Positions 4,782 to 36,839 of a stretch of 49,788 bases of DNA are shown here, one piece after another. The translations under genes and the position numbers were made by a program. Origin of the DNA: a virus (taxonomy: Duplodnaviria > Heunggongvirae > Uroviricota > Caudoviricetes). The notes under the pieces were generated by a model that was not told where the DNA came from, did no database searches, and saw only the letters and a program-made list of their open reading frames with translations. Every line of letters starts with the position of its first letter. Positions within the stretch are counted from its first letter, which is position 1. The DNA lies in IMG/VR virus record IMGVR_UViG_2718217868_000004, positions 1-49,788 of that record. One strand, given 5' to 3'.

Positions 4782-7700
4782 TCAGAACACCCCCGTTAAT
4801 CGGCCAACCTGCACTCTCAGAACGTTGTTGCCATCCTTGACGCTGATTGTCTGGTTGGTCTGCTTCATGGCTCCCTCCCCAGCTGTCGAACCGTAGTTCT
4901 CAAACGTCCCGGACTTATCCAGTTTCCAGCCAACAGAGCCGGCAACATAATTGTTCGACTGGATGTAATTGCCAATTTTTGCATTGCTTATGGTCCCGTC
5001 GCCAATGACTGTATCCCTGATAATGGCCTGGCCATTCTGGATAACGAACGGCAGTGTTACAGTCCCGCCGACCATAGTAGTCACGGCGAAACGGTCTGCC
5101 AGGAAGATTACCTGTGACTGCATGCCGGAGGGTGTATTTTGAACCCCAATACCCATCCCGGCAGCGTAATACTGCCCGTTACTGGACACCCCCACCTTGA
5201 TGTTATACATCGCGCTGAGGTTACCGTTTACATCTGCTATAGCCTGTGCGTTGACGTTTATCGCTGCACTGTTTTCGCCTGATTTAACAGTCAGAGTGTT
5301 GATTTTTGTTGCCGAAGCCTGGGTGAAATCAGCAAGAGTTTCTGTCAGGTCCGTTGAGTTAGAGATATTGCCACCAGCTTCTGCATCCAGTGTGACCAGC
5401 GCGCGTGCGACCGCCTGGCTGGTATCGGCAATCGTAGTATCCACTCTGTCTATACTGGCACTGTTCCCGGCGTTCGTGGCGGTCTGCGAGCGACGGCTTA
5501 CCACCTGCGCCAGCCCATTCTGAATAATCGCGATTGCCGAGTTCTTCACTCCTCCCGTCATGCCGTCCATCGACACAGAAATCTCGTCGATCTTCACTTC
5601 GGCCTGAGCCAGCCCGTCAGCGTTCTCCAGGATGTCTTTCGCCTGCTGCTCGAGTTCGTCGGCATGGTTTTTAATTTCGTCAGCCATGCCAGCAATTTTT
5701 TCGTTGCTGTCCACCGCGTTCTCGATCAGATCTTTGAACGTATCGGAGCCTTTCATGTCCTCCAGGATTGCATCGGTGATATCGGAAACATCGATGCTGG
5801 CCTGCCCGCGCACCCAGTCTGTCCAGTCGCTCTGATTCCCGATGCGGTCAACCAGCCGTGCCCGGTACCAGAATTCCTGCCCTGCCTTCAGCCCCATCTG
5901 CTGATAGAGTTTCTGAGGATACGGCACCGACGCCAAAAGCATTGGATTTGCCCCATCGACTGAAGCGCTGTATTGCAGTTCCGTGCTCAGGGTGTCGGCG
6001 GTATCTGCGGGGAAACCCCATGTAATGTTGATCCCAAATACAACATCCTCTGTTGCTGTTAGTCCGACAGGTTTGGGCACTTCACCGGTGCGGCCGGTAA
6101 GATGGGTCAACGCAGACGTGGCCCAAAGGCTGGACGCTCCCCCAGAGTTAATCGCACGGACGCGCACAAGGTAATCGCCCTCGAAAATGCCAGGCACTTC
6201 GATATTTCGTAACCCGGTTTCAGGCACGTTTACCCATTCGTTATTTCCGCGCTTCCACTGTGCCCGGTACGCTATTACGTCCGACTGCAGTTTGCCGTCT
6301 TTATCAATTGGCGCATCCCACGAGGCGGTTAGCGTGGCCACGCGTTGCCCCTGGCGAACCGCATCATAGCTCGATACCACGATGTTGGTCGGCTGGTTAA
6401 CTAGCCCGGTCGGAATCAGGCTTATCGGAGGAGTATCGAGGCGAGCGTTGTTATCAACGGCGTCGTATTTCGACGCGTTATACTCCGCACCGGTAATGGT
6501 GAAGGTGTTTTCCTCATCATCAAATTTTAGGTTCGTTACCCGGAAATACTGCAGGCGCAGCTGACCAGCATCAATGACGAATACGGCATTAGGTAATGGC
6601 GCCGCCGTGAACGGCGTGGACAGGATCAGCTGCGTGCCATTTACGGCCTGTATCACCCGGCTTTCAACGGTACCGCCCTGGGTGCGAATCATCAGCGTAT
6701 CGCCCGCCACCGCACTGGTGCCCCGGTCAATGGTCACGGCCTTAAGACCAGCGTTATACCCGGTGATACGCCCGCCGTAAACGCGCCCTGACAGGCGTTC
6801 ATCTGCAAACGCAAATACGGTGCCCGGCACGAATACAAAGCCATCAAGTCCAGTCTGAAGCGTGATAATGCGGTCAAGGGAGTTGGAATACACCGCCCAC
6901 CCGCCACGCCGCTGCGCCTCGCTCTCACGCGTACAACCGATCGCAGTGATTTGTGTCTGCTTAAACTTGAACTGCCTTACCAGTTCCGGAAACATCACTG
7001 CCGTGGTGCGGTCCTGGTAGTGGTTATCCGGATCGCTGAAGTTAATCAGCGCGCTGGAGAATCGGTTTTTCTCACTGCCACTCGAGTACACCGGCTTACC
7101 CACCACTGATGCGCGAGTGAGGATCTGCAACTTCGTAGTGTCCGCCGGCATGTCAGAGACAACATTGAACATGTTGTTGCCCCAGAAAGTCATTCCGTTG
7201 AAGCCCGCGGCAATATCTTTAATCACCTGCCAGGCATCAGCCTGGGACTGGATGTAAACGTCAAACATGAAGCGTGGCTCGGTACCGCTTCCGCCTTTCC
7301 CGTCGGGTACCTTCTGGTCGCAGCGCTGGGCGATGCGATAGAGCTCCCACTTATCGAGCATTTCTGGCGTCACGCGGCGCCCAAGGCCGAAGCGCGGCTC
7401 AGTCAGAACATCGAACCAAATCCACGCCGGGTTATTCGTCCAGCCCCATTTAAACGTCCCGTCCCATGTTCCGCTATAAGTCCGCGCTATTGGATCATAG
7501 TTCGAAGGGATTCGGATGATGCGCCCCTTCGGCATGCAGGAAATCTTAGGGATGTTGTTGAATGACTTTGCGTTAAAGGACACGTACAGCAGCGCTGTGT
7601 GTGGATATCGCAGGCGAGCATCGATCACTTCAGTAATCGCTTGCACCTGCGTTTTGTTCTGCAGCATCTGGCTGGTGCTGTCATCGGTGTCACGCACCAC

Positions 7701-8261
7701 TCGAATTTGCCAGCCAGTGCTGGCTTTGGGAAGATTAATACGGTGGGTTAGTTCATAGAGCGAGCTGAGCTTCTCTGTGACGGTTTTCGTCATGACTGTC
7801 GAGTAAGCGCCACCGTCCACCGCCAGATCAATATGGTACTGAACCGTAGTGCCGACAATATCCCCATCGTTTTCCTGCTGCTGTAACCCAGGGATGCCAA
7901 TACGAACCAGCACCGCGTCAATCTGGGTGTTACTCAGTGCGCGGGTCCATGGTGTGGCCTTTGTCAGCGATACCCCAACCGTAGTTTCATTCTCGACTGC
8001 AGGGAATCCCGGTATTGGTGTCTGGGTCTGTGTGCCAGGCCGGAAATCCCATGACACATTTTCAAAATTCATCGTTCCGTCGGGGTTTCCCAACGGCGTA
8101 CCGTCCAGGAATATCCGGGTCGCATCCAGGCCACCAGCAAACTCCCCCTCCCCGAGCGCCAGCAGCATGCGGCAGCGCGCCATTGACTGAGCCGAATCGG
8201 GCTGTTCTACAGGTGTGTGCTGCTTCTGGCTGCCACCCTTTGCACCAGTGATCGCTTCCAT
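4782..8261 (-). CDS. Central tail fiber / tip attachment protein J (host specificity protein)
   Basis: 1159 aa; N-terminus and overall organisation resemble lambda J as remembered; follows tail assembly genes I, K, L, M. Confidence 0.9.
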   Translation of the reverse strand: MEAITGAKGGSQKQHTPVEQPDSAQSMARCRMLLALGEGEFAGGLDATRIFLDGTPLGNPDGTMNFENVSWDFRPGTQTQTPIPGFPAVENETTVGVSLTKATPWTRALSNTQIDAVLVRIGIPGLQQQENDGDIVGTTVQYHIDLAVDGGAYSTVMTKTVTEKLSSLYELTHRINLPKASTGWQIRVVRDTDDSTSQMLQNKTQVQAITEVIDARLRYPHTALLYVSFNAKSFNNIPKISCMPKGRIIRIPSNYDPIARTYSGTWDGTFKWGWTNNPAWIWFDVLTEPRFGLGRRVTPEMLDKWELYRIAQRCDQKVPDGKGGSGTEPRFMFDVYIQSQADAWQVIKDIAAGFNGMTFWGNNMFNVVSDMPADTTKLQILTRASVVGKPVYSSGSEKNRFSSALINFSDPDNHYQDRTTAVMFPELVRQFKFKQTQITAIGCTRESEAQRRGGWAVYSNSLDRIITLQTGLDGFVFVPGTVFAFADERLSGRVYGGRITGYNAGLKAVTIDRGTSAVAGDTLMIRTQGGTVESRVIQAVNGTQLILSTPFTAAPLPNAVFVIDAGQLRLQYFRVTNLKFDDEENTFTITGAEYNASKYDAVDNNARLDTPPISLIPTGLVNQPTNIVVSSYDAVRQGQRVATLTASWDAPIDKDGKLQSDVIAYRAQWKRGNNEWVNVPETGLRNIEVPGIFEGDYLVRVRAINSGGASSLWATSALTHLTGRTGEVPKPVGLTATEDVVFGINITWGFPADTADTLSTELQYSASVDGANPMLLASVPYPQKLYQQMGLKAGQEFWYRARLVDRIGNQSDWTDWVRGQASIDVSDITDAILEDMKGSDTFKDLIENAVDSNEKIAGMADEIKNHADELEQQAKDILENADGLAQAEVKIDEISVSMDGMTGGVKNSAIAIIQNGLAQVVSRRSQTATNAGNSASIDRVDTTIADTSQAVARALVTLDAEAGGNISNSTDLTETLADFTQASATKINTLTVKSGENSAAINVNAQAIADVNGNLSAMYNIKVGVSSNGQYYAAGMGIGVQNTPSGMQSQVIFLADRFAVTTMVGGTVTLPFVIQNGQAIIRDTVIGDGTISNAKIGNYIQSNNYVAGSVGWKLDKSGTFENYGSTAGEGAMKQTNQTISVKDGNNVLRVQVGRLTGVF

Positions 8262-10411: not shown

Positions 10412-10761
10412 TATGCATACACTCCGTAAGCCCGTTTGATGGTGAACGTCAATTCAGCAAACTTGCTGCTGATCTGATTTTTCCGTACGGAATCGGCGAC
10501 TACCCGATAAAGCCCCTTCTCTTCTCCCGGCGGCGTGATGATGAAGGCCTTCACGGTATGAGCCAGGAGGAAGTCGCGCACTGCGTTTACCTCAGACTCA
10601 CTGCCAACGTGTTTCATTGGCACCTGGATCGCCGTGGAGTTGATGCCGTTCTCGGCCACCTGCTCATAGCCATCACCGAACTGCGCAGCGCGCACCGTTT
10701 GACTATATTCAATCGCCCCAGCACCGAGCTGCGAGCGCCAGCTGTATGTTTCAACTGCCAT
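10411..10761 (-). CDS. Minor tail protein M
   Basis: 116 aa, lambda M position; preceded by hairpin, T-run, RBS, ATG arrangement. Confidence 0.75.
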   Translation of the reverse strand: MAVETYSWRSQLGAGAIEYSQTVRAAQFGDGYEQVAENGINSTAIQVPMKHVGSESEVNAVRDFLLAHTVKAFIITPPGEEKGLYRVVADSVRKNQISSKFAELTFTIKRAYGVYA

Positions 10762-10924
10762 ATTTGCTCCATAAAAAAAGCCACCCGAAGGTGGCTACTG
10801 TCTGAATATCAGGATGTTACAAATCAAAATACCTGGTTATGTTGTGGATTCAGCCCGCCAGTGGTGGGCACTGGCGCATTAATTGCCGACGGTGCGGCTG
10901 ATGGCCTCGGTATAACAGGAGTTT

Positions 10925-11155
10925 ATGATGAGCTTTAACAAAGAAGACCAGCAGGATGAAGCCTTAGCGTTTTTATTAGCTGTTGCCACTGTCGAATCAG
11001 GTGATGCTGGAGCTTTTCGCAAGCGCGTTACTGAGTATATGACGAAGGCCTACGGTGGAGATACATCAAAAATGACGATGCAAGAGCAAGGTCGTGCCGA
11101 GGCGGTATCCAAATTGTACGCCAGGGCTGATAACATCTACCATCGCATCAAATAA
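10925..11155 (+). CDS. Hypothetical small protein on the opposite strand inside the tail operon, followed by its own terminator
   Basis: 76-aa ORF; strong plus-strand hairpin CCCCGG-ttaag-CCGGGG plus TTTT right after the stop. Confidence 0.5.
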   Translation: MMSFNKEDQQDEALAFLLAVATVESGDAGAFRKRVTEYMTKAYGGDTSKMTMQEQGRAEAVSKLYARADNIYHRIK

Positions 11156-11161
11156 TGCTTT

Positions 11162-11182
11162 GCCCCGGTTAAGCCGGGGTTT
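11162..11182 (+). terminator. Rho-independent terminator for the 10925-11155 gene
   Basis: Perfect 6-bp GC stem followed by a T-run. Confidence 0.55.
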
Positions 11183-11426
11183 TCAATCCGGCAATTGCCT
11201 TACTGGCATATTCTTTGGCGCGTGCTTCGACTTCGGCAAAAGAGCTGCCTGGATTGAAATCCTCCTGATAGATAAACACCAGTTCATGAGGCGCATTGAT
11301 TTGCTCCAGCTTGCAAACTGTAATTTTGGTTCTGACAGTCTTTATCATTTTAATTTCTAAATCGGGATCGAAGCTTACAGATTCAAATCGCGAACCCATT
11401 TCAGGGAATCCTACAGTCATTTCCAT
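11169..11426 (-). CDS. Hypothetical protein (cassette between tape measure and M)
   Basis: 85-aa ORF with AGGAGAA RBS 5 nt upstream of the ATG. Confidence 0.5.
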   Translation of the reverse strand: MEMTVGFPEMGSRFESVSFDPDLEIKMIKTVRTKITVCKLEQINAPHELVFIYQEDFNPGSSFAEVEARAKEYASKAIAGLKTPA

Positions 11427-11456
11427 AACGTTCTCCTGCCTCTCGGCTACAGATAT

Positions 11457-11480
11457 AAAAAAGCCCCGCGTATGCGAGGC
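11457..11480 (-). terminator. Intrinsic terminator, GCCCCGC-N4-GCGAGGC family
   Basis: Minus-strand stem GCCUCGC/GCGGGGC with one G-U pair followed by a U-run; near-identical copies near 28887 and 30758. Confidence 0.5.
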
Positions 11481-11529
11481 TTAATATTGGTTGAAAGCAT
11501 GGGAGGGAAGGTCATCAAACCATTTTGGT

Positions 11530-11979
11530 TTAACTTCCATTCATTTCTTCAAGGCGGTAATCAGTCTTCCCATTTTTATCTTCGATGCATATAGCTCTGA
11601 ATTTCTGCTCAAGCCCAAATTTGTTCTTGGCACTAAATTCCTGAGTTGCGTAGAACTTCCCGTCATTACTCTGCCACCTTTTTGCGCCAAACACAGACAT
11701 ATCCAGAGTGCTTTTGTTGATGACCGACATTCTAACGTAGGCCTCACACGCCCCCCGAAGTTCATCCAGTTTCTTGTCAGATAACTCTTTGGCTTCCTTT
11801 TGTTTCTTTTCCGCCTCAGTTGGCTTATTAACTACAGCAGCAATGCCGACCACAACGATAAGAAGAATAAGCATCCCGATGGTTTTGAGAATCTTCTTCA
11901 ATATCTTTTTAAGCATTATCATCCCCTGATCACTATGGTTTTCCTCATAATAACCAGGGGATGTGAGAATGTAACGCAA
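11530..11979 (-). CDS. Hypothetical membrane-anchored protein; probable true start near 11922
   Basis: N-terminal TM helix (IGMLILLIVVVGIAAVV) then a Lys/Glu-rich domain; AT-rich DNA; the track start is TTG, an internal ATG with GGGGA RBS is more likely. Confidence 0.5.
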   Translation of the reverse strand: MRYILTSPGYYEENHSDQGMIMLKKILKKILKTIGMLILLIVVVGIAAVVNKPTEAEKKQKEAKELSDKKLDELRGACEAYVRMSVINKSTLDMSVFGAKRWQSNDGKFYATQEFSAKNKFGLEQKFRAICIEDKNGKTDYRLEEMNGS

Positions 11980-11989
11980 CTCTATGATA

Positions 11990-14900
11990 TTACTTTTTCA
12001 CAAAGCGGCCACCAATCGCTCCATCATCTCTGATTGCTCTGACGATGCCTTCTTGGACATACTGCTTCACACGATCAGCCAGCGCGCGAGCAGCCGCGTC
12101 ACCACCACCGCTGGTATTTGCAGTCGCGTTACCTTTGTTATCGACATAAATATCAACGTTGATTTGATGTCCGGAACCACCAGCGCCTTGGGCACGCACA
12201 CCCAACCGCCCTGCTGAATCTTTAGCTAACGGCATAATAGCTTCCGGCCCTGCCTCTCCAAAGACGCCGCCCTTGGCAAACTTAGAGGCCCCCTGGAAGG
12301 AGAAGTATTGCGGGGAATCATAGACACCGTTCACATACTGGTGAAGGCCCGCTGATTCGTAGACACCACCCTTAGCATTCCTGACTGGCCCGACGAAATC
12401 TGGACTGCCGATACCGCCACCTTGAGGATTTGAAGAGCCACTTATCCACCCCATTGCCGCCTGCACCGCATAGGCCACCATGAGGCGGTTCGTCACATCA
12501 AGGATCATCTTGAGCATGGATTTGCCAAACTCTTTAACCGACGCAGTGCCGGTTGTCATGAGTTCGGTTAGCATGTCGGACAATCCTGTCAAAGTGGAGC
12601 TGGCAACGTTCTTAACGGCGTCGTATGTATTGGTAGCAGCGTCGAGATATTCATTCCAGCCACTTACCGCACCTGCTTTCCAGTCGCCCCGTAATTTGTC
12701 CTCTTCGGCATAATATTTCCTGAGAGCCGCCAGTTCTTTTTTATAACCGGCATCGTCAAGCTTACCGCCACCGTTGAGCCAGCCCTGGCGAAGCTGCGCC
12801 TCTTCCATCATGCGCTGCGTTTGCCGACTGCTGAGACCTGCACTATCACGCAATGCATCGGTTTTTTCCGACATCTGCGTGACGTATTTATTCGCCTGCT
12901 GCGCCAGGCCGTTAATCTTCTGCTGCGCCTCTACTTCCTTGTTCTTCTGATCCACCACCTTGGCGGCGTTCAGAATGGCCTCACGGCTCGACAGTAGAGA
13001 TTTCTCCTGGGCGGTCAGCGCGCGTGTTTTGGCAGCCTCATCCAATTCAGCAAAGCGAGATTGCTGTTTGCTGAATTCGGTATATCTGACCTGAGTCTCC
13101 CCAGTCTTGCGCAACGTTTCGAGTGTTTCAGTTAACGTTCTGGCCTGGGCGCGGTAGTTCTCAAGAGTGCGATCGCCAGCATCCAGCGTGGCTTTTGCCT
13201 CTTTGGTCTTTTTGGCTGAGTCTTGTGCAAGCTTCGAGACTGCGTCTCTTGATTCTCGACTTGTTCCTCCATCACCTTTTACGTTAGACCCTCGCGCTTC
13301 AGCCTCATAGTTTGCCTGTGCGTTAGGCGCAGTGACGCGCTTCCAAAGCTCGTTATAGCGTTTTTTGTTCGCCTCAATCTCTTTGTCCGCCTCCGCTCCA
13401 GCCTTTTTCATTGCCTCAACGTCCATGCCGAGGAAATTAGCCAGCGCACCGCCACCCGGGATTTTGTCTGCCCAGCCAGCGATGGTGCTGGTGAACTTGG
13501 CGTCCAGAGAGGTGATATTGAGGAACAAGTCTTTGATCGAGGATTTAACCAGTTCGAAAATATCAATGATCTGGTTTCCCCATGCGCGCACGGTAATACC
13601 TATATCGCCAAAGGTGTCAGAAGCGCTCTTTTTAAGGTTTTCCCACGTTTGACCGATATTATCGGTCGCTTTGTTGGTCTCCTCTGCGCGCTTTGCCATG
13701 ACGCCTGCAAACAGCTCAATAGCTTCGGTAACAGCCGCCTGCTCACCCTTCTGCTTACGTAGCTGGATAATGTGCTTGATCATGGCTTCATCAACGAAAC
13801 CATATTGTTCATTGAGGCTGGCAAGCCCTTTAACCGGATCGCTGACAATCTTTCCGAAGTCGCTTATTGCCGCTTTGGTATCATTTCCGGCCTTACCCAT
13901 GAGGGTGATGGTCGTTGCGACCTGCTTCATCTGGCTTGCGGTATATTTGCCAGTATCATTCAACGTAACCAGCGTATCGACGGTGGAGCTAATCGATGTA
14001 TTCGTCTTGCCAGCCACTTCCTCAGCGGCCTGGTTGAGCTGCTGCATTGAGGAGAAGCCAGCCCCACCCATCATGATGACAGAGCGTGCCACCTGCTCAA
14101 ATTGCTCCGAGGAGTTATACGCTGCGGCAGCCAGCAGGCCGATCGTGCCAATCAGCCCACCAAGTGCGATTGTGGTAGGGTTAATCATCCCAGCCATGCT
14201 GCGGATGTATTCGCCGACGCCGGACAGCGCCCCCTGAACCGAGCCGAACTGGTCTTTAATCTGCCCGCCCTGTTGCAGCAGAATCAGGAACGGCGACTGA
14301 CCGCCAGCCAGCTGCGTGGCGATATCGGTGAATTGCGCCGGAAGCGTGCGCATTGCTGCGCTGTACTGACCAACGGAGATTCCAGCGCGCCGGGCAGCAG
14401 CTTCCTGCCGGGATAGCGCCTCTGGTAGTACGTCAGCGACACCAGAGAGGCGCTCACGCGTCTGGTTAAGGATTGTGTTGAAGTGCTCGAACTGAGCACC
14501 GTTAATGCGCCCAGCTTCGAAATGTGCCACCAGCTGTGCGTGCTGTTCATCCAACGAATTGAACGCGCGGATAGTCGGGTCGATGGATCCAAGAAGGTTC
14601 TTTAACGCTGCGGACTGCTTCTCTGCCGCCTGGGTAGCGGCTAATTCGGCCTGAGCACGCGCCGCGGCTTCTCCGGTGTCGGTCAGCTTGAGGCGGGTGT
14701 CATCCAGGATTTTGTTGTATGCCTGAAAGGTATCGGTATCCAGGAAACCTTTGGCCTGGAATTTCCGCAGCGATTCTTGCTGCTCATCCAGGCGGTTTAA
14801 GGCCTTGGTAACCGGGTCGATATTCTCCAGCAGCCCTTTGAGCGCGTTCTGCTGCTCCTTGAGTCCTTCGCTGCCTTGCTTCGCAGATTCAGCGCCAGCG

Positions 14901-15037
14901 CGAAACACGCTATTCAGATCATCTGCTTTATCTACAGCACCGGCCGCCGCCTGGCCGAGTTTATCCAGTTCGTTGCTGGCTGTTTTCAGGTCAGAAACAT
15001 CGGCCCGCAAAGTAATCGAGGCGATCTGGTCTGTCAT
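11990..15037 (-). CDS. Tail tape measure protein
   Basis: 1015 aa, Ala/Gln/Lys-rich coiled-coil-like sequence with Gly-rich C-terminus; follows the G/GT chaperones. Confidence 0.9.
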   Translation of the reverse strand: MTDQIASITLRADVSDLKTASNELDKLGQAAAGAVDKADDLNSVFRAGAESAKQGSEGLKEQQNALKGLLENIDPVTKALNRLDEQQESLRKFQAKGFLDTDTFQAYNKILDDTRLKLTDTGEAAARAQAELAATQAAEKQSAALKNLLGSIDPTIRAFNSLDEQHAQLVAHFEAGRINGAQFEHFNTILNQTRERLSGVADVLPEALSRQEAAARRAGISVGQYSAAMRTLPAQFTDIATQLAGGQSPFLILLQQGGQIKDQFGSVQGALSGVGEYIRSMAGMINPTTIALGGLIGTIGLLAAAAYNSSEQFEQVARSVIMMGGAGFSSMQQLNQAAEEVAGKTNTSISSTVDTLVTLNDTGKYTASQMKQVATTITLMGKAGNDTKAAISDFGKIVSDPVKGLASLNEQYGFVDEAMIKHIIQLRKQKGEQAAVTEAIELFAGVMAKRAEETNKATDNIGQTWENLKKSASDTFGDIGITVRAWGNQIIDIFELVKSSIKDLFLNITSLDAKFTSTIAGWADKIPGGGALANFLGMDVEAMKKAGAEADKEIEANKKRYNELWKRVTAPNAQANYEAEARGSNVKGDGGTSRESRDAVSKLAQDSAKKTKEAKATLDAGDRTLENYRAQARTLTETLETLRKTGETQVRYTEFSKQQSRFAELDEAAKTRALTAQEKSLLSSREAILNAAKVVDQKNKEVEAQQKINGLAQQANKYVTQMSEKTDALRDSAGLSSRQTQRMMEEAQLRQGWLNGGGKLDDAGYKKELAALRKYYAEEDKLRGDWKAGAVSGWNEYLDAATNTYDAVKNVASSTLTGLSDMLTELMTTGTASVKEFGKSMLKMILDVTNRLMVAYAVQAAMGWISGSSNPQGGGIGSPDFVGPVRNAKGGVYESAGLHQYVNGVYDSPQYFSFQGASKFAKGGVFGEAGPEAIMPLAKDSAGRLGVRAQGAGGSGHQINVDIYVDNKGNATANTSGGGDAAARALADRVKQYVQEGIVRAIRDDGAIGGRFVKK

Positions 15038-15324
15038 TATTTCGTCTCCTTATGCATTACCTTGAGAGCCTCGCTTTCCATAATTTGAAGGTCAGCCATG
15101 CAGGCCGCCGCATCCTCAACCCCGTGTAACTCGAACATCCAGGGGAGAACGTTGTAATCAAGGCCGGTCGCCCCGCTCGCGCCGACTCGCCACTGGGTCG
15201 CCAGGGAAGAGAAGATGGTGAAGGACCTCCACACCGAGGGCAGGATCCCCACCTCTTCCTCCACGTCCTCAGGCGTCAAACCAAAAGCGCTCAGCTCCGC
15301 GAGCGTCGGTCCCGGCGTATACAA
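15037..15324 (-). CDS. Tail assembly chaperone frameshift extension (T-like part of a G-T fusion)
   Basis: ORF is in the -1 frame relative to G and stays open across the A-AAA-AAC heptamer at the end of G. Confidence 0.65.
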   Translation of the reverse strand: MYTPGPTLAELSAFGLTPEDVEEEVGILPSVWRSFTIFSSLATQWRVGASGATGLDYNVLPWMFELHGVEDAAACMADLQIMESEALKVMHKETK

Positions 15325-15341
15325 TGCTGCGGCGACCTGCC

Positions 15342-15680
15342 TCAGTTTTTTTCGCGGATACCCATCAGCTCTTTGGTGTATGCCAGACCGATGCTGTCGA
15401 ACGCGCGCGGGTAGTTCTGAAGAAGGACAATAACGTTGTCGCGGGTGAACTCGTCAGGTAGTGCCCACCCCTCGACAATTTCCATGAGGTAGTCGGCCTG
15501 CGGCTCGATAGCAGCCTTTTTACCTTCAGCCGACTTTTGCAGCTTTTCATCCATAGAGCGCAGCTCTTCCAGCGTCTTATGGCGGAAAGTGAACGTCAGC
15601 TTGCCGTCTTCGGCACCAGCGCGTGGAATGTTCGCGGTCACAGAAAAAGTTGGGTTGGGGATCAGAGAAAATTTGGTCAT
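15342..15680 (-). CDS. Tail assembly chaperone G
   Basis: 112-aa acidic protein directly upstream of the frameshift site and tape measure gene; AAGGAA RBS. Confidence 0.75.
   Translation of the reverse strand: MTKFSLIPNPTFSVTANIPRAGAEDGKLTFTFRHKTLEELRSMDEKLQKSAEGKKAAIEPQADYLMEIVEGWALPDEFTRDNVIVLLQNYPRAFDSIGLAYTKELMGIREKN
15345..15351 (-). other. Programmed -1 ribosomal frameshift slippery heptamer A-AAA-AAC
   Basis: Heptamer is the last codons of G (GAA AAA AAC TGA); the -1 frame continues into the 15037-15324 ORF. Confidence 0.6.
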
Positions 15681-15745
15681 TTCGGTTCCTTAGAAAAGAA
15701 AAACCCGCCGTAGCGGGTTGAATATTCGAGTGCGTGATGGGGGTG

Positions 15746-16612
15746 TTATCGTTTGTACAGCAGACCGCCTGGCTTCAGCGCATTGAGGAGAGCATCGTTC
15801 ACCGCTTCGTGTATCGCCTGTTGCAAGCCAACTACTGAAGCTGTTTGCGCATCAATCTTTGCCTGGAGGGCTGCGAACAAATCGCTTTCGCGTACGGCGG
15901 AGATAATGGCTTCGCACATCTCATCATTGAGGCTGGTTTTGGTGGCATTATTGCCATCAGCGGGATTAGCTCCATCATGACTAATTGCCCCAGGGAAACC
16001 ACCAAAAGCCAGACCATCATTGAAGGCCGTCTCTTCATTATTGCTGGCTGATTGAGCGGCTTCATTCAGCTTAAAGCGGTCAGCCTCAAACACGACCTTG
16101 CGCTGGTCACCTTCAATGCAGACGGCCATGCCAGCAACGTGCAGTTTGCCGCCGTGGTTCACGTTCATCTTTACGCTATAGTTGGCAGACACTGCGGCAT
16201 CACCAATCATCGTATCGGTAATATGCACCTGACAGTGAATCGGCGTTCCGTTTATCAACTTTTCAAATGCTTTGCTGCTGCGAATCTCTTCACAAATTTC
16301 ATCGAGCGCCTTTTGAGCGCATTCAAGCTCAACCCCGAGCGGGGAGTAGTATTCCTGCTTCACCGTCTCACCAAAGCGCGTATTGACCAGGTGCTTAATA
16401 GCAAACTCCTGCCCTTCAGCAGTCAGGAACGTAAAATGATTTACCTTCCCATAGGCTGTTGCTGTGAGTCGGGTTTCAGCCAACCCCAGCTCGCGAAGCT
16501 GTGCTGCACCAGATTTAGATGGCAGCTCGCCACTTTGCAGCGCACCACGGAAAAACAGCGCATACAGAACATCAGTCGCCGCACCGGACAACGTAATAAT
16601 TTTCTGACCCAT
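15746..16612 (-). CDS. Hypothetical protein between major tail gene and G (atypical position)
   Basis: 288-aa ORF with AAGGAAA RBS; flanked by terminator-like hairpins; preceded by a structured intergenic leader of about 120 nt. Confidence 0.55.
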   Translation of the reverse strand: MGQKIITLSGAATDVLYALFFRGALQSGELPSKSGAAQLRELGLAETRLTATAYGKVNHFTFLTAEGQEFAIKHLVNTRFGETVKQEYYSPLGVELECAQKALDEICEEIRSSKAFEKLINGTPIHCQVHITDTMIGDAAVSANYSVKMNVNHGGKLHVAGMAVCIEGDQRKVVFEADRFKLNEAAQSASNNEETAFNDGLAFGGFPGAISHDGANPADGNNATKTSLNDEMCEAIISAVRESDLFAALQAKIDAQTASVVGLQQAIHEAVNDALLNALKPGGLLYKR

Positions 16613-16733
16613 GATTTATTTCCTTTTAGGCGTGAGCCTGTCGCACGGCAATGCCGCCGAAAGTTAACGGTTTGCCCAGGCTCACAGCTGAAAGACTTTC
16701 TTCGATGTGCGCGTGCGATGCGCAGATGTGTTA

Positions 16734-17069
16734 TTACCAGGAAGCTTCGTATGCGATGTTCGTCAGCTCATCTGACAGTTCGCTGATGGAGTAAGCGATA
16801 GCCATCTTCTGTTCCCTGCTGAACGACGGCCAAAGTTGACGCAAAGATTCAGTGAGTTGATGTTGCCAGTGTCCATCACCGCTTAGATCTTCCCATCCAT
16901 CAGGCAGGAGACAGAGCCCACGACCGTAAAGCTCCTCTTCCGGGGTAAGGGGCGGCCGAGCGGCTGCCGTATTTACTGGGCCATCACCCCAATTGCCGAT
17001 AACTATTTTCCCGCCACCAGCCATATTGACTGTCATCCCAACCTCACTGATCTCAATTGTTCCGCTCAT
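16734..17069 (-). CDS. Hypothetical protein between major tail gene and G
   Basis: 111-aa ORF; GGAG RBS; preceded by hairpin GCCCGG-ctta-CCGGGC plus T-run. Confidence 0.5.
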   Translation of the reverse strand: MSGTIEISEVGMTVNMAGGGKIVIGNWGDGPVNTAAARPPLTPEEELYGRGLCLLPDGWEDLSGDGHWQHQLTESLRQLWPSFSREQKMAIAYSISELSDELTNIAYEASW

Positions 17070-17111
17070 GGGTTACTCCAAAAAAAAGCCCGGCTTACCG
17101 GGCCTGATTGG

Positions 17112-18044
17112 TTAGCTGACCGTGACAGTACACGCAGCCGAGGTGATGGTTTTGCCCGCGGCGTCGGTGACTTCACAGGTGTAAACGCCAGCATCACCGG
17201 ATGCGACAGACGAAATGTTGAACGTCGATGCGGTTTTGCCCGGAATAGCGGTGCTGCCTTTCTTCCAAACGTAGGTGTAAGGTGCTGAGCCGCCCTTCAT
17301 TACCACTGCCAGATCCAGCGCTGCGCCTGTGGCAACGGACTTGGTGGCCGGCAGGTCGGTCAGGAACGCCAACGGCGTCACAGATGAATCGGCGATCGGG
17401 TAAATCTGCATGTCCGATTCGAAGTTCATACGCGCTTCGTTGCTTTCTACGGCGTTGATTTCGGTCTTTGGTACCTTCTGGAATGAGACTTTCGCAGAAT
17501 AGTAACGGTCTGCCTTACCGCGCTGGTTGTGGAACCAGATTGCCGTCGTATCGCTCGACTCATCCAGCTCGATCAGACGTTTGTAGATAGCCAGCAGCGG
17601 GTCATGTGCGAAGGTGTAGACCTGAACCACTGCGTTTTTGAATGTTGGAATAGTACGGGCCTTATCATCCTCAAGGAACTGCACGCTGATGGTCTGCTGG
17701 TCACCGCCTTCGGTGGACAAGGTCATGACCTGCGGCATGGTGATCCATGAGTCTATTTTGCGCAGCGTGCCCGCGCCGGTACCAGCAGGAAACTTCGTAG
17801 TATCTGTGGTATCGAAGGATTCCAGTACAATTTTGGTGGTGGTGACTGATTTAACGCGCAGCACCATGTTATCGAGCTTTAGCCAACCAGAATTCACCTG
17901 AACCACGTCGCCCGCCAGTAAGCCAGCAGCCGAGGCAGTGGTCAGTTCACATTCCGTTGCATTGGAGGCTGCAGTAAAGGTAATTGGGGCCTGATATGCC
18001 CTGGCCACGTTCACACGTGAACCATTAGGGATTGCGAATGCCAT
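17112..18044 (-). CDS. Major tail protein with C-terminal Ig-like domain (track start 18248 is over-extended)
   Basis: Internal ATG at 18044 with AGGAGAG RBS; C-terminal segment looks like a bacterial Ig-like domain; position before the chaperones. Confidence 0.7.
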   Translation of the reverse strand: MAFAIPNGSRVNVARAYQAPITFTAASNATECELTTASAAGLLAGDVVQVNSGWLKLDNMVLRVKSVTTTKIVLESFDTTDTTKFPAGTGAGTLRKIDSWITMPQVMTLSTEGGDQQTISVQFLEDDKARTIPTFKNAVVQVYTFAHDPLLAIYKRLIELDESSDTTAIWFHNQRGKADRYYSAKVSFQKVPKTEINAVESNEARMNFESDMQIYPIADSSVTPLAFLTDLPATKSVATGAALDLAVVMKGGSAPYTYVWKKGSTAIPGKTASTFNISSVASGDAGVYTCEVTDAAGKTITSAACTVTVS

Positions 18045-18090
18045 AGCACTCTCCTGAAAAAAGATAATAAAAAACCCACCAGGTGGCGGG

Positions 18091-18507
18091 TCAGTAATCA
18101 GATCGGTACTGCATGCTGACTGGATGCGTAATATCGATATCACTCTGTATTGGCTGGCGTACCTGCGGCGGGCCATTGATGTAAACCGCCAGGTCTCCAT
18201 CCACCAGCGGGAGCCCCTCGGGGAAAGCATCGGCAATGGATTTGGCAAGCCCTCTGGCCTGGGTTACGCCGCTACCCGCAGGTGCAATGATATTGAGCTG
18301 GAGAATGCCCTGGTATGTACACAACTGACCTTCCAGGTCCTGCCCCACGGTTTGCGCTGGTAAGACATAAACGCGCCCATAAGGGGCATCATCAGGCGGG
18401 GTAAAAGCGATGTTAGGCCAGGCGATCGGCAATCCGAGCGACTCAGCGATAATCGCCACCCGGCTCTCCAGCAATTCAGCAATTCGCATGGACTGGTCAC
18501 CGGCCAT
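18091..18507 (-). CDS. Tail terminator / tail completion protein (assignment by position)
   Basis: 138-aa ORF immediately upstream of the major tail gene. Confidence 0.45.
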   Translation of the reverse strand: MAGDQSMRIAELLESRVAIIAESLGLPIAWPNIAFTPPDDAPYGRVYVLPAQTVGQDLEGQLCTYQGILQLNIIAPAGSGVTQARGLAKSIADAFPEGLPLVDGDLAVYINGPPQVRQPIQSDIDITHPVSMQYRSDY

Positions 18508-34596: not shown

Positions 34597-36585
34597 CTAA
34601 GCCGCTATTTGTTTCGATTGGCATAGTTCCGGCAAATTAGCACGCACCAGCGCTTCAGCGAACGGCGGTGGCACCGCGTTACCGCAGCGGGCAACCTGTT
34701 TATCCTTCGCGTACTTCTTGCCCCGGTAGTCCTGGTCGATGATGTACCAGTCCGGGAAGCCCTGCGCCCGGTACAGTTCGCGCGGCTGTAACATGCGCAT
34801 ACCAATATCAACAATGCGATACGTCACGCCATCGATCACCACCAACCCGGTACAATCCTCACCACAGTATTTGCGCAGGAACGCCAGCGTTTGTTGCGCG
34901 CGTTCTTCGTCGTACTCATCTACGGCAAGATGAGTTTCAACGTTCCCTACATGCAGGCCACCAGCCGTGACAGTCGGCATTGGCGCGTCGGTGCGTTGTC
35001 CATCCCGGCAGGTTCCGCGCAATTTAACCAGGTGAGAAGCAACCACAGCATGGTGATCGACGGTGGTCACAGAATGCATCGGCTCATCCATCCCCACTCC
35101 GGCGCCCTGGTAATTCCCGCCGTAATGTTTAATGAGATGTGCAGCGGCAACCGCAAATTTATTACCGCCAGCGGTGACCGTGCCAAGCGGGCTATCAAGT
35201 TTCAGCACACGCGGCTCTTGCCCTGGACGTTCGCCATAACCCATCTGAATCAGCGTTGGCGTCACCAGCTGTGATTTACCGCCACCGCCCGCGGTGATAG
35301 TTGCGCTCGGTTCGTCTGCCCGGTGGCCGATACTGGCACCAAACTGCCGGGCAATAACCGGAGCCACCAGGCAACTGCGCGATTGCTTCAGAATAGTGTG
35401 AGCGGGTTTATTTAGTGGGCGCGGCTTCGCCTGATATTCACTGCCCCCATTGCCAGCCAGGAACGGAGTGATCGCCGCCTCAACCAACCCAAGAGCATGA
35501 CCATTGCCGCCCGGGCGCACCGACGTCCCAGCTGTGACAGTGGGCACAGGTTCGGTAACGGGCTGCCCGGTTGCGCCAGTACGGAACTTTGTCAGGTGTG
35601 GAACGGCTAACGCGTAGCCGTGGGTTTTCGTAATGGTCTGCAGAGGCTCTCTCAGCGCCTGCCCACGGAAACAGTCGTATTTCCCTTTGGTCGTCGTGTG
35701 GTTGCACTTGACGATGAACGGCGACGCGCTCTCGATCACAAACCGCTGGATGCCACGAGCGATGCGTTTGAGCGTATTTTCAGCCAGTGGCTTTTTGCGG
35801 TCGAATATCGACGGTGCCGGAATGGTCCAGTCGATACACTCCGCAGCTGTACGCCATGGCGCCAACTTTCCACTCTGCACAGCTGGAGATTTCGGGTCGC
35901 CGTGGGTCGGGTCCGGCCAGGTCACCGGCATACCATCGCAACGCATTACCATGAAGAAACGCTTCCTGATGGTCGGTGCGCCAAAGTCGCAGGCGCGCAG
36001 CTCACGATGATCAACAGCGTAACCCAGCCCGGCCACCAGTTGCTGCGCCAGTTCGCCGTCGGCAGTAATACCCAGGAACTCGCAGCACTCCGCCAGCGCC
36101 GGATGACCGGCAGGAATACCACCGGATAGCATGCCGCAGAAAGCCTCGAAGGTCTCACCAGTACGCAGGGGATTTGGACGTAACCCACCATCAGCAGATT
36201 CGATAAGCGGCCCCCAGGTGCGGAACTCTTCAACGTTCTCCAGCATCATCACACGGGGACGTACCGCCAGCGCCCAGCGAATGACAATCCACGCCAAACC
36301 ACGAATCTCTTTCTCTACCGGCTTTGAACCTTTAGCCTTTGAGAAGTGACGGCAATCAGGGGAAAACCATGCCAGCCCCACCGGGCGGCCAGCGGTCGCT
36401 ACGATGGGATCGACATCAAACACCGATTCGCAGTAGTGCAGTGTATCCGGGTGGTTCGTAGTGTGCATCGCAACAGCGTTCGGGTCGTGGTTAATCGCAA
36501 TATCCACACTACGACCGATCGCCAGCTCAATGCCCGTGCTCGCCCCGCCGCCGCCGGCAAAGTTATCAACGATGATTTCTCTCAC
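34597..36585 (-). CDS. Orphan DNA cytosine-5 methyltransferase; start at GTG overlapping the upstream stop
   Basis: Motif I FAGGGG, PC-type catalytic motif (SPDC) and ENV motif (LENV); GGAGAAA RBS before a GTG that overlaps the upstream TGA; no restriction endonuclease gene nearby. Confidence 0.8.
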   Translation of the reverse strand: MREIIVDNFAGGGGASTGIELAIGRSVDIAINHDPNAVAMHTTNHPDTLHYCESVFDVDPIVATAGRPVGLAWFSPDCRHFSKAKGSKPVEKEIRGLAWIVIRWALAVRPRVMMLENVEEFRTWGPLIESADGGLRPNPLRTGETFEAFCGMLSGGIPAGHPALAECCEFLGITADGELAQQLVAGLGYAVDHRELRACDFGAPTIRKRFFMVMRCDGMPVTWPDPTHGDPKSPAVQSGKLAPWRTAAECIDWTIPAPSIFDRKKPLAENTLKRIARGIQRFVIESASPFIVKCNHTTTKGKYDCFRGQALREPLQTITKTHGYALAVPHLTKFRTGATGQPVTEPVPTVTAGTSVRPGGNGHALGLVEAAITPFLAGNGGSEYQAKPRPLNKPAHTILKQSRSCLVAPVIARQFGASIGHRADEPSATITAGGGGKSQLVTPTLIQMGYGERPGQEPRVLKLDSPLGTVTAGGNKFAVAAAHLIKHYGGNYQGAGVGMDEPMHSVTTVDHHAVVASHLVKLRGTCRDGQRTDAPMPTVTAGGLHVGNVETHLAVDEYDEERAQQTLAFLRKYCGEDCTGLVVIDGVTYRIVDIGMRMLQPRELYRAQGFPDWYIIDQDYRGKKYAKDKQVARCGNAVPPPFAEALVRANLPELCQSKQIAA

Positions 36586-36839
36586 GCGTATTTCTCCATA
36601 GCGGTGGCCAGTGACTGGGCGGCGTTTACGATGGCTGGTACCGGCATTTTCTCCAGCCACATACGGTTGATGTGATGCTTCAGGCGGCGCTGGTGATGCG
36701 CCGGGAGATCCCCGGCACTTTCAATCTGGCTATATACCATTCCCACCTCAGCAGGCCAGACGGTTTCGGTCACATCCACCAGCAGCAGGTTTTCCAGTTC
36801 GACGATGCGTTTCGTGGCGTATTCCAGTTGAGGTTCCAT
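36582..36839 (-). CDS. Hypothetical protein translationally coupled to the methyltransferase
   Basis: 85-aa ORF whose stop TGA overlaps the methyltransferase GTG start. Confidence 0.45.
   Translation of the reverse strand: MEPQLEYATKRIVELENLLLVDVTETVWPAEVGMVYSQIESAGDLPAHHQRRLKHHINRMWLEKMPVPAIVNAAQSLATAMEKYA

Follow-up and report, generated by a model that had tools for sequence, protein, structure and literature searches.

A pseudoknotted RNA leader and exchangeable cargo genes at the junction of the tail tube and tail chaperone genes in an HK639-like prophage

Lambdoid phages exchange morons, extra genes set between genes that adjoin in relatives, and HK97 gp15 is said to be a moron in the tail gene region. 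In phage T4, the read-through transcripts of e, soc, and I-TevI have hairpins that sequester the ribosome-binding site (RBS). Here we compare with these systems a region in a 49,788-nucleotide (nt) stretch of caudoviral DNA (IMG/VR record IMGVR_UViG_2718217868_000004, positions 1 to 49,788; hereafter the window). Two open reading frames (ORFs) of 111 and 288 amino acids (aa), ORF111 and ORF288, lie there between the tail tube gene V and the tail chaperone gene G, and a structured RNA leader precedes ORF288 (Table 1). A third system is that of the Tai proteins, which are encoded in prophages, PICIs, and P4-like satellites and block tail assembly; mutations that escape them map to the C-terminal part of tail protein J (He et al. 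2024, PMC11364771). The phi80 gene taiEcA (orf63) has an antisense orientation inside the late operon that depends on Q, and the small gene downstream of it, atiEcA (orf64), neutralizes TaiEcA; Ati genes were found for TaiEcA-like systems only, and other, non-homologous counter-defenses, including against non-cognate Tai, were left open (PMC11364771). Our overall reading, to which we assign a probability of about 0.55, is that an optional cassette at the V|G junction combines a cis-acting RNA leader with cargo that acts against Tai.

To guard against bias, 80 viral loci were fetched via the G protein alone, and V, G, and the leader were then located in them; 78 contain both V and G. The initial annotation had described V as normally directly before G and the two genes between them as an unusual insertion. 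Both statements hold, as do the coordinates of the two genes: in 26 of the 78 loci V and G are 44 to 68 nt apart, with one hairpin followed by the RBS of G. The junction is occupied by a leader and a cargo gene (698 to 1,484 nt) in 49 loci, 12 of which also have ORF111, and by inserts of other kinds in 3. Cargo ranges from gp59-like proteins of 163 to 341 aa to unrelated 176-aa proteins. HK639, the closest sequenced phage, has flanks 93% identical to those of the window and a single 226-aa hypothetical gene in the slot, between two annotated terminators. The synteny comparison that had been suggested at the outset thus finds a polymorphic slot. We read the V|G junction as a recombination hot spot in this HK639-like prophage and regard it as close to certain that the region is an exchangeable late-operon cargo cassette outside the core tail machinery. 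Given the empty junction in 26 of 78 related loci, ORF111 and ORF288 appear to be dispensable for this tail.

The cassette resembles lambdoid morons in its position between genes that adjoin in relatives, in its exchange among phages, and in its own factor-independent terminator downstream (15719–15702), where empty sites hold one hairpin only. It differs from them in having no detectable promoter of its own, in carrying a structured RNA at its 5' end, and in its base composition, which does not mark the insert (GC content is 0.50–0.55 both inside and outside). The expectation that each gene is bracketed by a hairpin and T-run is borne out for the pair (17105–17086 and 15719–15702); a terminator scan of the gene strand detected no such element between the two genes. 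A scan limited to consensus sigma-70 promoters detected none on the minus strand in 15000–18400. Lambdoid Q-modified RNA polymerase ignores terminators, and a Q-type antiterminator is encoded in the prophage. From the lack of a recognizable promoter and the position behind the V terminator, we infer that the cassette would be transcribed only on readthrough by Q-modified late RNA polymerase, during tail building.

The leader came to light in a BLAST comparison of the gap between ORF111 and ORF288 with the first phage loci, which returned a sharp block of ~106 nt, 93–97% identical, ahead of different genes in HK639, mEp213, phi80, FSL SP-016, AsXd-1, Fostie, CharmingMan, LMessi, mEp390, and SaltyDalty. 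A second phi80 copy, 69% identical, lies upstream of rha. Among more than 250 fetched loci the leader is ~106–128 nt long and its borders are razor-sharp: the upstream DNA is unrelated, mostly ending in a terminator T-run, and downstream divergence begins at the start codon. A pattern for the outer stem matches at least 120 viral contigs; among these, 60 different cores were distinguished, which fall into length classes of 51–54 and 63–67 nt. In all 129 pattern instances an ORF starts at most 45 nt downstream, and in 110 a T-run lies just upstream. A covariance model (R1) built from 35 diverse copies gave 105, 54, and 47 matches in three locus sets, some of them divergent copies beyond the reach of the pattern. 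By BLASTN, the window-type leader is present in 226 of 5,426 complete Escherichia coli genomes and is an annotated feature in none; Nissle 1917 is one of them, and widely used cloning strains have it in their phi80 remnant.

The genes behind the leader form 14 clusters, the largest being gp59-like/DUF1983 proteins (53), Rha-like proteins (37), KilA-N-like proteins (12), and glycosyltransferases of 485 aa (12). The leader also precedes proteins that were found independently, namely free-standing copies of the ORF288 N-domain, and it accompanies close ORF111 homologues, starting a few nucleotides past the stop codon in every one examined (at least 22 loci). By sequence comparison it is a mobile, widely conserved module common to many cargo genes, which the initial annotation had not seen. 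It marks the 5' end of an exchangeable class of late-operon cargo and so offers a sequence handle for finding such cargo, much of which is likely to be counter-defense.

No Rfam 15 family matched the window region at E ≤ 1, and none relevant matched five variant loci at the gathering score; a literature search for the stem sequence returned unrelated primer matches only. Families in Rfam 15 that are likewise cis-acting structured RNAs in prophages, including C4, IsrK, and the put/nut type, do not match the window leader. The leader is a previously unannotated RNA family, absent from Rfam 15 and unannotated in RefSeq. An undescribed, strongly co-varying RNA fold is present in coliphages and strains that are among the best studied: HK639, the mEp phages, phi80 (and through it derivatives of DH5alpha and DH10B), and Nissle 1917.

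In transcription order the leader comprises a short hairpin (P1), a purine-rich spacer tract, a strand complementary to the Shine-Dalgarno (SD) sequence, a long hairpin (P2), and the SD sequence of ORF288. The earlier description of a gap of about 120 nt with two long-range inverted repeats was correct for the length (121 nt) and for the first repeat, in which GTGAGCCTG (16632–16640) pairs with CAGGCTCAC (16677–16685). The second repeat, TGCGC...GCGCA, is local, forming a short hairpin with a 7-nt loop. P2 is interrupted by a conserved, invariant-rich bulge of 6 nt (GUGCGA). Its base is followed by the RBS, in which AAAGG (16626–16622) pairs with UCUUU (16695–16691) to form a basal helix, P0; the start codon of ORF288 (16612–16610) lies 9–10 nt past the GG. 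P0 is present in the minimum free energy fold of this copy. As a single sequence the whole leader does not fold significantly better than chance (z = −1.09); P2 by itself does stand out (z = −3.3).

The comparative evidence decisively bears out the initial proposal that the leader is structured: it is a real folded element. RNAalifold recovers both P1 and P2. In a MAFFT alignment, 89.8% of cells are paired, versus 28–49% when the partners are slid, and the covariation score is 0.168, versus 0.05–0.08; none of 500 shuffles reached the observed pairing or covariation values. When 88 distinct copies are aligned to the model, the paired share of cells is 93%, versus 26–49% in slid controls, two-sided changes occur in 18 of 30 pairs, versus 3–6 when slid, and again none of 500 shuffles attained the observed values; these counts lean towards the structure because the alignment was fitted to it. 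The middle stem of P2 alternates among C-G, G-C, A-U, and U-G pairs. P0 (alignment positions 49–56 with 176–183) is 96% paired and has co-variants, and in one variant class the helix changes from CUUU/AAAG to CCUA/UAGG. The many G-U pairs and the weak reverse-strand scores of model R1 (20–25 bits, versus 100–138 bits forward) identify the sense strand as the one that folds.

A further interaction joins the spacer tract to the apical loop of P2. In all 35 representatives, the loop can pair with the purine tract that lies directly 5' of the anti-SD strand; tract and loop change together, giving at least nine different helix sequences. Besides GAAAGU/ACUUUC in the window, variants include GAGAG/CUCUC, AAGAG/CUCUU, CGAGAG/CUCUCG, CGAUAA/UUAUCG, UCCUGGAG/CUCCGGGG, CCCAGAG/CUCUGGG, and CCCGAG/CUCGGG. 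Divergent copies outside the pattern selection, read by eye, keep the pseudoknot with new sequence (CACAGAG/CUCUGUG and CGUCGA/UCGACG). In the first control, 40% of loops from other classes paired as well as the own loop, a result that is uninformative because three classes are all purine/pyrimidine tracts; an energy permutation test was used instead. Duplex energies added up over 12 spacer classes come to −97.9 kcal/mol with the own loop, versus −74.3 ± 6.5 kcal/mol with permuted loops, and 13 of 20,000 permutations gave an energy as low. A conserved, pseudoknotted RNA fold is thus well supported by sequence comparison.

What the fold does is likely to be translational, and that it is regulated, as first suggested, is plausible. 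The RBS is paired with an upstream strand and the pairing, although weak, is kept in evolution. We propose that the portable leader acts in cis on ORF288, the principal cargo gene, the UCUUU strand at the long hairpin pairing with the RBS, and that it would set or switch the yield of cargo protein from the very abundant late mRNA. If so, it is a tractable model of how accessory proteins are dosed from structural-gene transcripts. The T4 e, soc, and I-TevI hairpins are similar in that an upstream strand pairs with the RBS of a gene in a long phage transcript. They differ in that the window leader is a mobile module common to unrelated genes, with an additional hairpin and a co-varying pseudoknot, and in that a search of the window leader found no internal promoter from which transcripts without the masking strand could start.

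Several observations weigh against masking of the RBS. P0 is weak in this copy, with five pairs including one G-U; the mean unpaired probability near the SD sequence is 0.54, not below that of neighboring genes; and in two divergent copies the SD sequence lies just outside the main helix. The pseudoknot's 5' strand adjoins the foot of a ~30-bp helix and its partner lies at the tip, a geometry from which we infer that the pseudoknot and P0 are mutually exclusive. On geometry alone, the pseudoknot probably competes with the RBS helix, and the anti-SD strand would serve as a linker when the pseudoknot forms. A weak P0 would suit a switch, yet it leaves RBS masking unproven. A bolder version of our reading, which we consider unlikely, is a new class of portable RNA switch that responds to a signal from phage or host and has two states, RBS free in the pseudoknot state and masked in the basal-helix state, that gates counter-defense cargo, with ORF111 as a new anti-Tai family protecting phages that lack Tai. 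If true, the leader would be a promoter-less, RNA-controlled "expression socket" for anti-defense genes, including anti-Tai proteins, J mimics, Rha/KilA-N regulators, and glycosyltransferases.

The same features could belong to a leader that is structured for another purpose, such as stability or processing (as a self-cleaving RNA or a site for RNase III/E), which would excise the cargo mRNA from the late transcript, or a signal at the level of transcription that modifies RNA polymerase ahead of the next terminator. The long imperfect helix, the conserved unpaired nucleotides (bulge GUGCGA, loop GGCGGC), and the pseudoknot are as in ribozymes and protein-binding RNAs, the leader lies between two terminators, and the SD helix is thermodynamically weak. 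We nevertheless give this explanation low odds, given that the leader matches no Rfam ribozyme, put, or nut-like family, that the fold always ends, on its 3' side, right at the SD sequence and start codon, and that the SD partner co-varies. A Q-modified polymerase should, from general knowledge of lambdoid Q, ignore the terminators anyway. Other candidate identities were rejected. A kink turn at the GUGCGA bulge would need A residues on the opposite strand for G-A pairs, and there are none; a likeness to rrn-type boxB-boxA-boxC extends to only 6 of 9 boxA positions; and, by eye, the spacing does not fit sigma-54, sigma-E, or MerR-type promoters.

Leader copies differ from one another. A longer variant has an extra mini-hairpin, AGGU-GGCG-ACCU, that co-varies to UGGU/ACCA (phi80, locus L004, 2369–2512; L229, 1853–1998; L002, 4967–5110), and lies ahead of Rha-like or KilA-N-like genes, just past the lysis cassette. 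In type-C copies (L026, L062, L066, L102), a perfect TATAAT, which the window copy lacks, separates P1 from the long hairpin; placed to start a transcript at the hairpin base, it may be a lineage-specific promoter. In many loci (e.g., L006, L007, L008, L009, L221, L229) the leader or gp59-like gene is followed by the conserved 485-aa glycosyltransferase gene and a glucosyltransferase gene of ~196 aa, and in mEp390 and LMessi the leader is directly ahead of the 485-aa gene. A 244-aa ORF on the opposite strand (16052–16786, plus) overlaps ORF288 and the leader; its phi80 counterpart, gp50 (99 aa; L004, 623–922, plus), is annotated as a gene and likewise crosses the conserved RNA element. Both antisense ORFs look like spurious calls.

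Two explanations place the function of the element in DNA. In one, ORF111 and ORF288 are classical morons that have a promoter of their own, are active in the lysogen, and change the host, for example by superinfection exclusion, and the leader is a promoter/operator with the P1 palindrome as repressor site. Extra DNA with a downstream terminator is moron architecture, some NCBI records name the ORF288 N-domain "Fur-regulated protein," the type-C variants have their TATAAT, and symmetric changes in palindromic P1 could reflect a dimeric DNA-binding protein. We judge this improbable: the gene strand has no sigma-70-like promoter in the region scanned, TATAAT is limited to one variant class, the element mostly starts at a terminator T-run (110 of 129), inspection of the two proteins shows no signal peptide or membrane segment, and PADLOC matches neither. 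Nor would a promoter explain covariation in the pseudoknot and long helix with many G-U pairs.

In the other, the element is a homology block or folded recombination site for cargo exchange, comparable to integron attC, and the RNA fold is incidental. The razor-sharp borders with unrelated DNA on both sides, the at least 14 cargo families that follow, and conservation above that of adjoining coding DNA (94% versus 85% in phi80) are what such a site would show. This is still less probable, since the orientation relative to the downstream ORF is constant, an RBS is built into the fold, the many G-U pairs are C-A mismatches on the other strand (where model scores are low), and a co-varying pseudoknot is hard to explain in duplex DNA. 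The attC analogy itself was set aside, given the constant orientation, the strand-specific fold, and the lack of an integron-type recombinase in the window. Exchange of cargo by homologous recombination is compatible with an RNA function and is probably its by-product.

Turning to the cargo, ORF111 belongs to a family of 55 homologue clusters found in Enterobacteriaceae only. Its homologues adjoin a characterized defense gene, a link that the initial annotation had not seen. In FSL SP-016 (KC139516) the homologue SP016_00210 (71% identity) lies head-to-head with TaiSalA (36278–36823), an experimentally tested Tai (PMC11364771, supplementary Table S3), and is followed by the leader and a gp59-like gene. 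The Tai-ORF111-leader module also occurs in seven loci from Salmonella, Enterobacter, and Kluyvera (L060, L110, L119, L014, L213, L214, L215), so that ORF111 homologues stand beside TaiSalA-type genes in eight loci. The equivalent position in phi80 is held by gp51, next to taiEcA and ahead of the same leader and a gp59-like gene; by position, gp51 is atiEcA. The two arrangements are alike in having a small late-operon gene head-to-head with a Tai gene, directly ahead of the same leader and gp59-like gene. They are also alike in that Tai genetically targets the C-terminal part of J, which a segment of ORF288 resembles, and the HK639 allele of ORF288 has an AtiEcA-like N-domain. They differ in that ORF111 has no detectable AtiEcA sequence, that the window prophage has no Tai gene, and that the window cassette is in the tail operon, whereas the phi80 pair lies before the packaging genes. 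The paper on the phi80 pair (PMC11364771) does not describe the RNA leader.

The homologues of ORF111 hold the atiEcA position beside TaiSalA, and Tai is missing from the window, which makes ORF111 a candidate anti-Tai of the orphan kind. On this argument of guilt by position, we place the odds slightly short of even that it would neutralize TaiSalA-type proteins and so be functionally analogous to AtiEcA of phi80. More generally, counter-defense against tail-assembly inhibitors is the best account of the cassette proteins that we have, and a plausible one. Set against this are the lack of a BLASTP match between ORF111 and phi80 gp51/AtiEcA, the lack of a Tai gene in the window (best tblastn E = 0.35), and the many ORF111 homologues that are likewise orphans; given these last two points, the Tai link rests on one conserved module. 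ORF111 also has no Pfam, PADLOC, or NCBIfam match. Structure prediction, another suggestion of the initial annotation, was informative in part: the AlphaFold2 (AF2) model of ORF111, three strands and a helical domain, has a predicted local distance difference test score (pLDDT) of 78, and it has no Foldseek match in PDB or BFVD. The anti-TaiSalA that is still missing has a concrete candidate in the ORF111 family, and an orphan ORF111 in a tail operon would, if this is true, exemplify the predicted anti-Tai against non-cognate Tai. A RecX-like PHROG match (E = 4.5e-5) was set aside, as nothing else supports RecX.

In phi80 and SP-016, the tai/ati pair is flanked by the two leader variants, the longer one with the extra mini-hairpin and the one without it. 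An Rx4H motif occurs in both TaiEcA (MRNDLAH; phi80, L004, 1172–1786) and TaiSalA (IRNARSH; FSL SP-016, L002, 3533–4078), and TaiSalA has a weak Pfam match to HEPN family PF18736 (E = 0.03); by these motifs Tai may be HEPN-type proteins.

ORF288 has 1,040 homologues, most of them from prophages of Enterobacter and E. coli. Their names are "phage tail tip fiber protein," which PGAP also gives to ORF288 itself, or "DUF1983 domain-containing." The protein is a mosaic, with separate PHROG matches for its N-domain (aa 1–80), middle, and C-terminal parts. Its C-terminal 161 aa are 80% identical to HK639_13 and its first 200 aa are 50% identical to phi80 gp49, and the N-domain also occurs in free-standing proteins of 84–167 aa, none of which, among those checked for Tai neighbors, lies beside Tai. 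The remark that neither protein resembles a tail component stands for ORF111 and fails in part for ORF288. Pfam PF09327 (Phage_Tail_Tip/DUF1983) matches ORF288 with 33.9 bits (cut-off 22), over profile positions 12–67 of 139 only. ORF288 aa 141–182 are 37% identical over 46 aa to aa 1015–1060 of the resident J, and the segment is 40% identical to J of HK106, HK544, phi80, and HK022. A profile search of PDB gave a weak match to the F2 pyocin tail fiber (1078–1124, E = 0.026); a single-sequence PDB search gave no match. ORF288 had no PADLOC or NCBIfam match.

F-type pyocin fibers have a C-terminal beta-prism "seed" (bioRxiv 10.64898/2026.01.28.702463). Judged from these alignments, the ORF288 segment corresponds to a short beta-prism region of central fibers, located just past their fold-switching coiled coil. 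Like lambda J and the F-type pyocin fiber, ORF288 (aa 121–188) carries the motifs NGQ.(F/Y)I..A.IGD and YSVK...AG...F.ADRF. Unlike these central fibers, of about 1,150 aa, it is only 288 aa long, has no tip-complex, FN3, coiled-coil, or receptor-binding domains, and has an unrelated N-domain that also occurs free-standing. The C-terminal region of J in which Tai-escape mutations lie is where the ORF288 segment aligns, and phi80 gp51 aa 18–53 resemble the N-terminus of HK639_13 (44% over 36 aa, E = 5e-5). The mosaic domains, the J-like segment, and the likeness of HK639_13 to gp51/AtiEcA suggest that the family may present a J-like trimerization or mimicry module with exchangeable N-domains and take part in the Tai/anti-Tai conflict. 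ORF288 would then form trimers that mimic J in its C-terminal part, acting as a decoy or displaying its exchangeable N-domain to inhibitors. Such a decoy or anti-Tai role is possible and, in our view, doubtful. Identity to real J proteins is 37–40% only; the AF2 model of ORF288, from a 41-sequence alignment, has a pLDDT of 35, too poor for a fold search; and in phi80, where the gp59-like gene is probably among orf65 and orf66, deleting either of these two singly had no phenotype versus TaiEcA (PMC11364771).

The J-like segment also bears on whether ORF111 and ORF288 are real tail components or assembly factors, for example a tip or fiber accessory that co-assembles with J and its chaperone, respectively. 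Both genes are within the tail operon, ORF288 has a central-fiber-like beta-prism segment and a tail-fiber name, and its poor monomer model is compatible with an obligate oligomer. The main argument against a structural role is the polymorphism of the slot, which is empty in 26 of 78 phages with 93–99% identical G and holds unrelated cargo, such as KilA-N-like proteins, in others. ORF288 has no N-terminal J domain and lacks the full J architecture (about 1,100 aa that include tip-complex and receptor-binding domains, encoded where the tail module ends). In phi80, mEp213, and N15-like and HK97-like phages its family is found outside the tail module, behind the lysis genes and close to cos, and ORF111 keeps company with the leader and Tai rather than with tail genes. 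We consider a structural role very improbable and retain the reading of the two genes as optional cargo, probably for counter-defense.

Table 1. Features of the window in and around the V|G junction
Feature	Position	Strand	Remarks
Tail terminator protein	18507..18091	minus	Pfam Phage_tail_terminator_5
Terminator-like hairpin and T-run	18092-18073	gene strand	after tail terminator gene
V, tail tube gene	18047..17112	minus	Pfam Phage_tail_3, E=3e-43, plus C-terminal Ig-like domain
Intrinsic terminator, 8-bp hairpin and T8 run	17086..17105	minus	right after V; upstream border of insertion
ORF111, 111 aa	17069..16734	minus	small acidic protein, phrog_17483
Intergenic gap, 121 nt	16613-16733		between ORF111 and ORF288
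Structured RNA leader	16604..16731	minus	covariance model R1, 124.5 bits; sole copy in window
P1 hairpin UGCGC-AUCGCAC-GCGCA	16708..16724	minus	compensatory GCGU/ACGC variants
Pseudoknot 5' strand GAAAGU	16695..16700	minus	complementary to apical loop
Anti-SD strand UCUUUCAG	16688..16695	minus	basal helix P0 with RBS
Long hairpin P2	16632..16685	minus	outer stem GUGAGCCUG/CAGGCUCAC, middle GGCAA/UUGCC, inner CCG/CGG, bulge GUGCGA
Pseudoknot 3' strand ACUUUC	16659..16664	minus	apical loop of long hairpin
SD sequence AAAGGA of ORF288	16621..16626	minus	partly paired in P0
ORF288, 288 aa	16612..15746	minus	N15 gp59 / phi80 gp49 family, mosaic
J-like segment of ORF288, aa 137-188	16049..16204	minus	Pfam Phage_Tail_Tip, own J, pyocin fiber
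Intrinsic terminator	15702..15719	minus	after ORF288; downstream border of cassette, 21 nt ahead of G start codon
G, tail chaperone	15680..15342	minus	Phage_TAC_4, E=2.6e-27
T	15324..15037	minus	DUF1799
Real J of prophage	4782-8261		

The tail genes around the cassette follow in transcription order as listed, and T is followed by the gene for a tape measure protein of 1,015 aa. A prophage of E. coli strains H5 and H6 is 100% identical to the window over this stretch; it adjoins tonB/yciI and carries cor, J, and a Q-type antiterminator. In HK639, the feature equivalent to the hairpin after V is annotated "terminator." The Ig-like domain of the tail tube protein (aa ~220–311, window 17112–17400; Pfam Ig_3, Ig_2, and I-set, PHROG Hoc-like decoration) is of the surface-exposed type found as an extension on many siphophage tubes. 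The 3' end of G (15342–15353, minus) reads GAA AAA AAC TGA, corresponding to a T-run at 15346–15352 on the plus strand, and this A-run is the expected slippery site for a −1 frameshift that yields a G-T fusion.

The tape measure gene is an intact frame of 1,015 aa in the window (11990–15037), and in the RefSeq record of strain H6 (L011, 16691–19738) it appears as a shortened coding sequence and a pseudogene fragment. Between it and the next minor tail gene (10761–11990), GC content falls to 0.41–0.44, and three small ORFs have no Pfam match: one of 149 aa with a hydrophobic stretch, one of 85 aa, and one of 76 aa on the opposite strand. At the equivalent site HK639 encodes a lipoprotein, a hypothetical gene, and a YafO-family toxin, and this interval is likely to be a second cargo slot.

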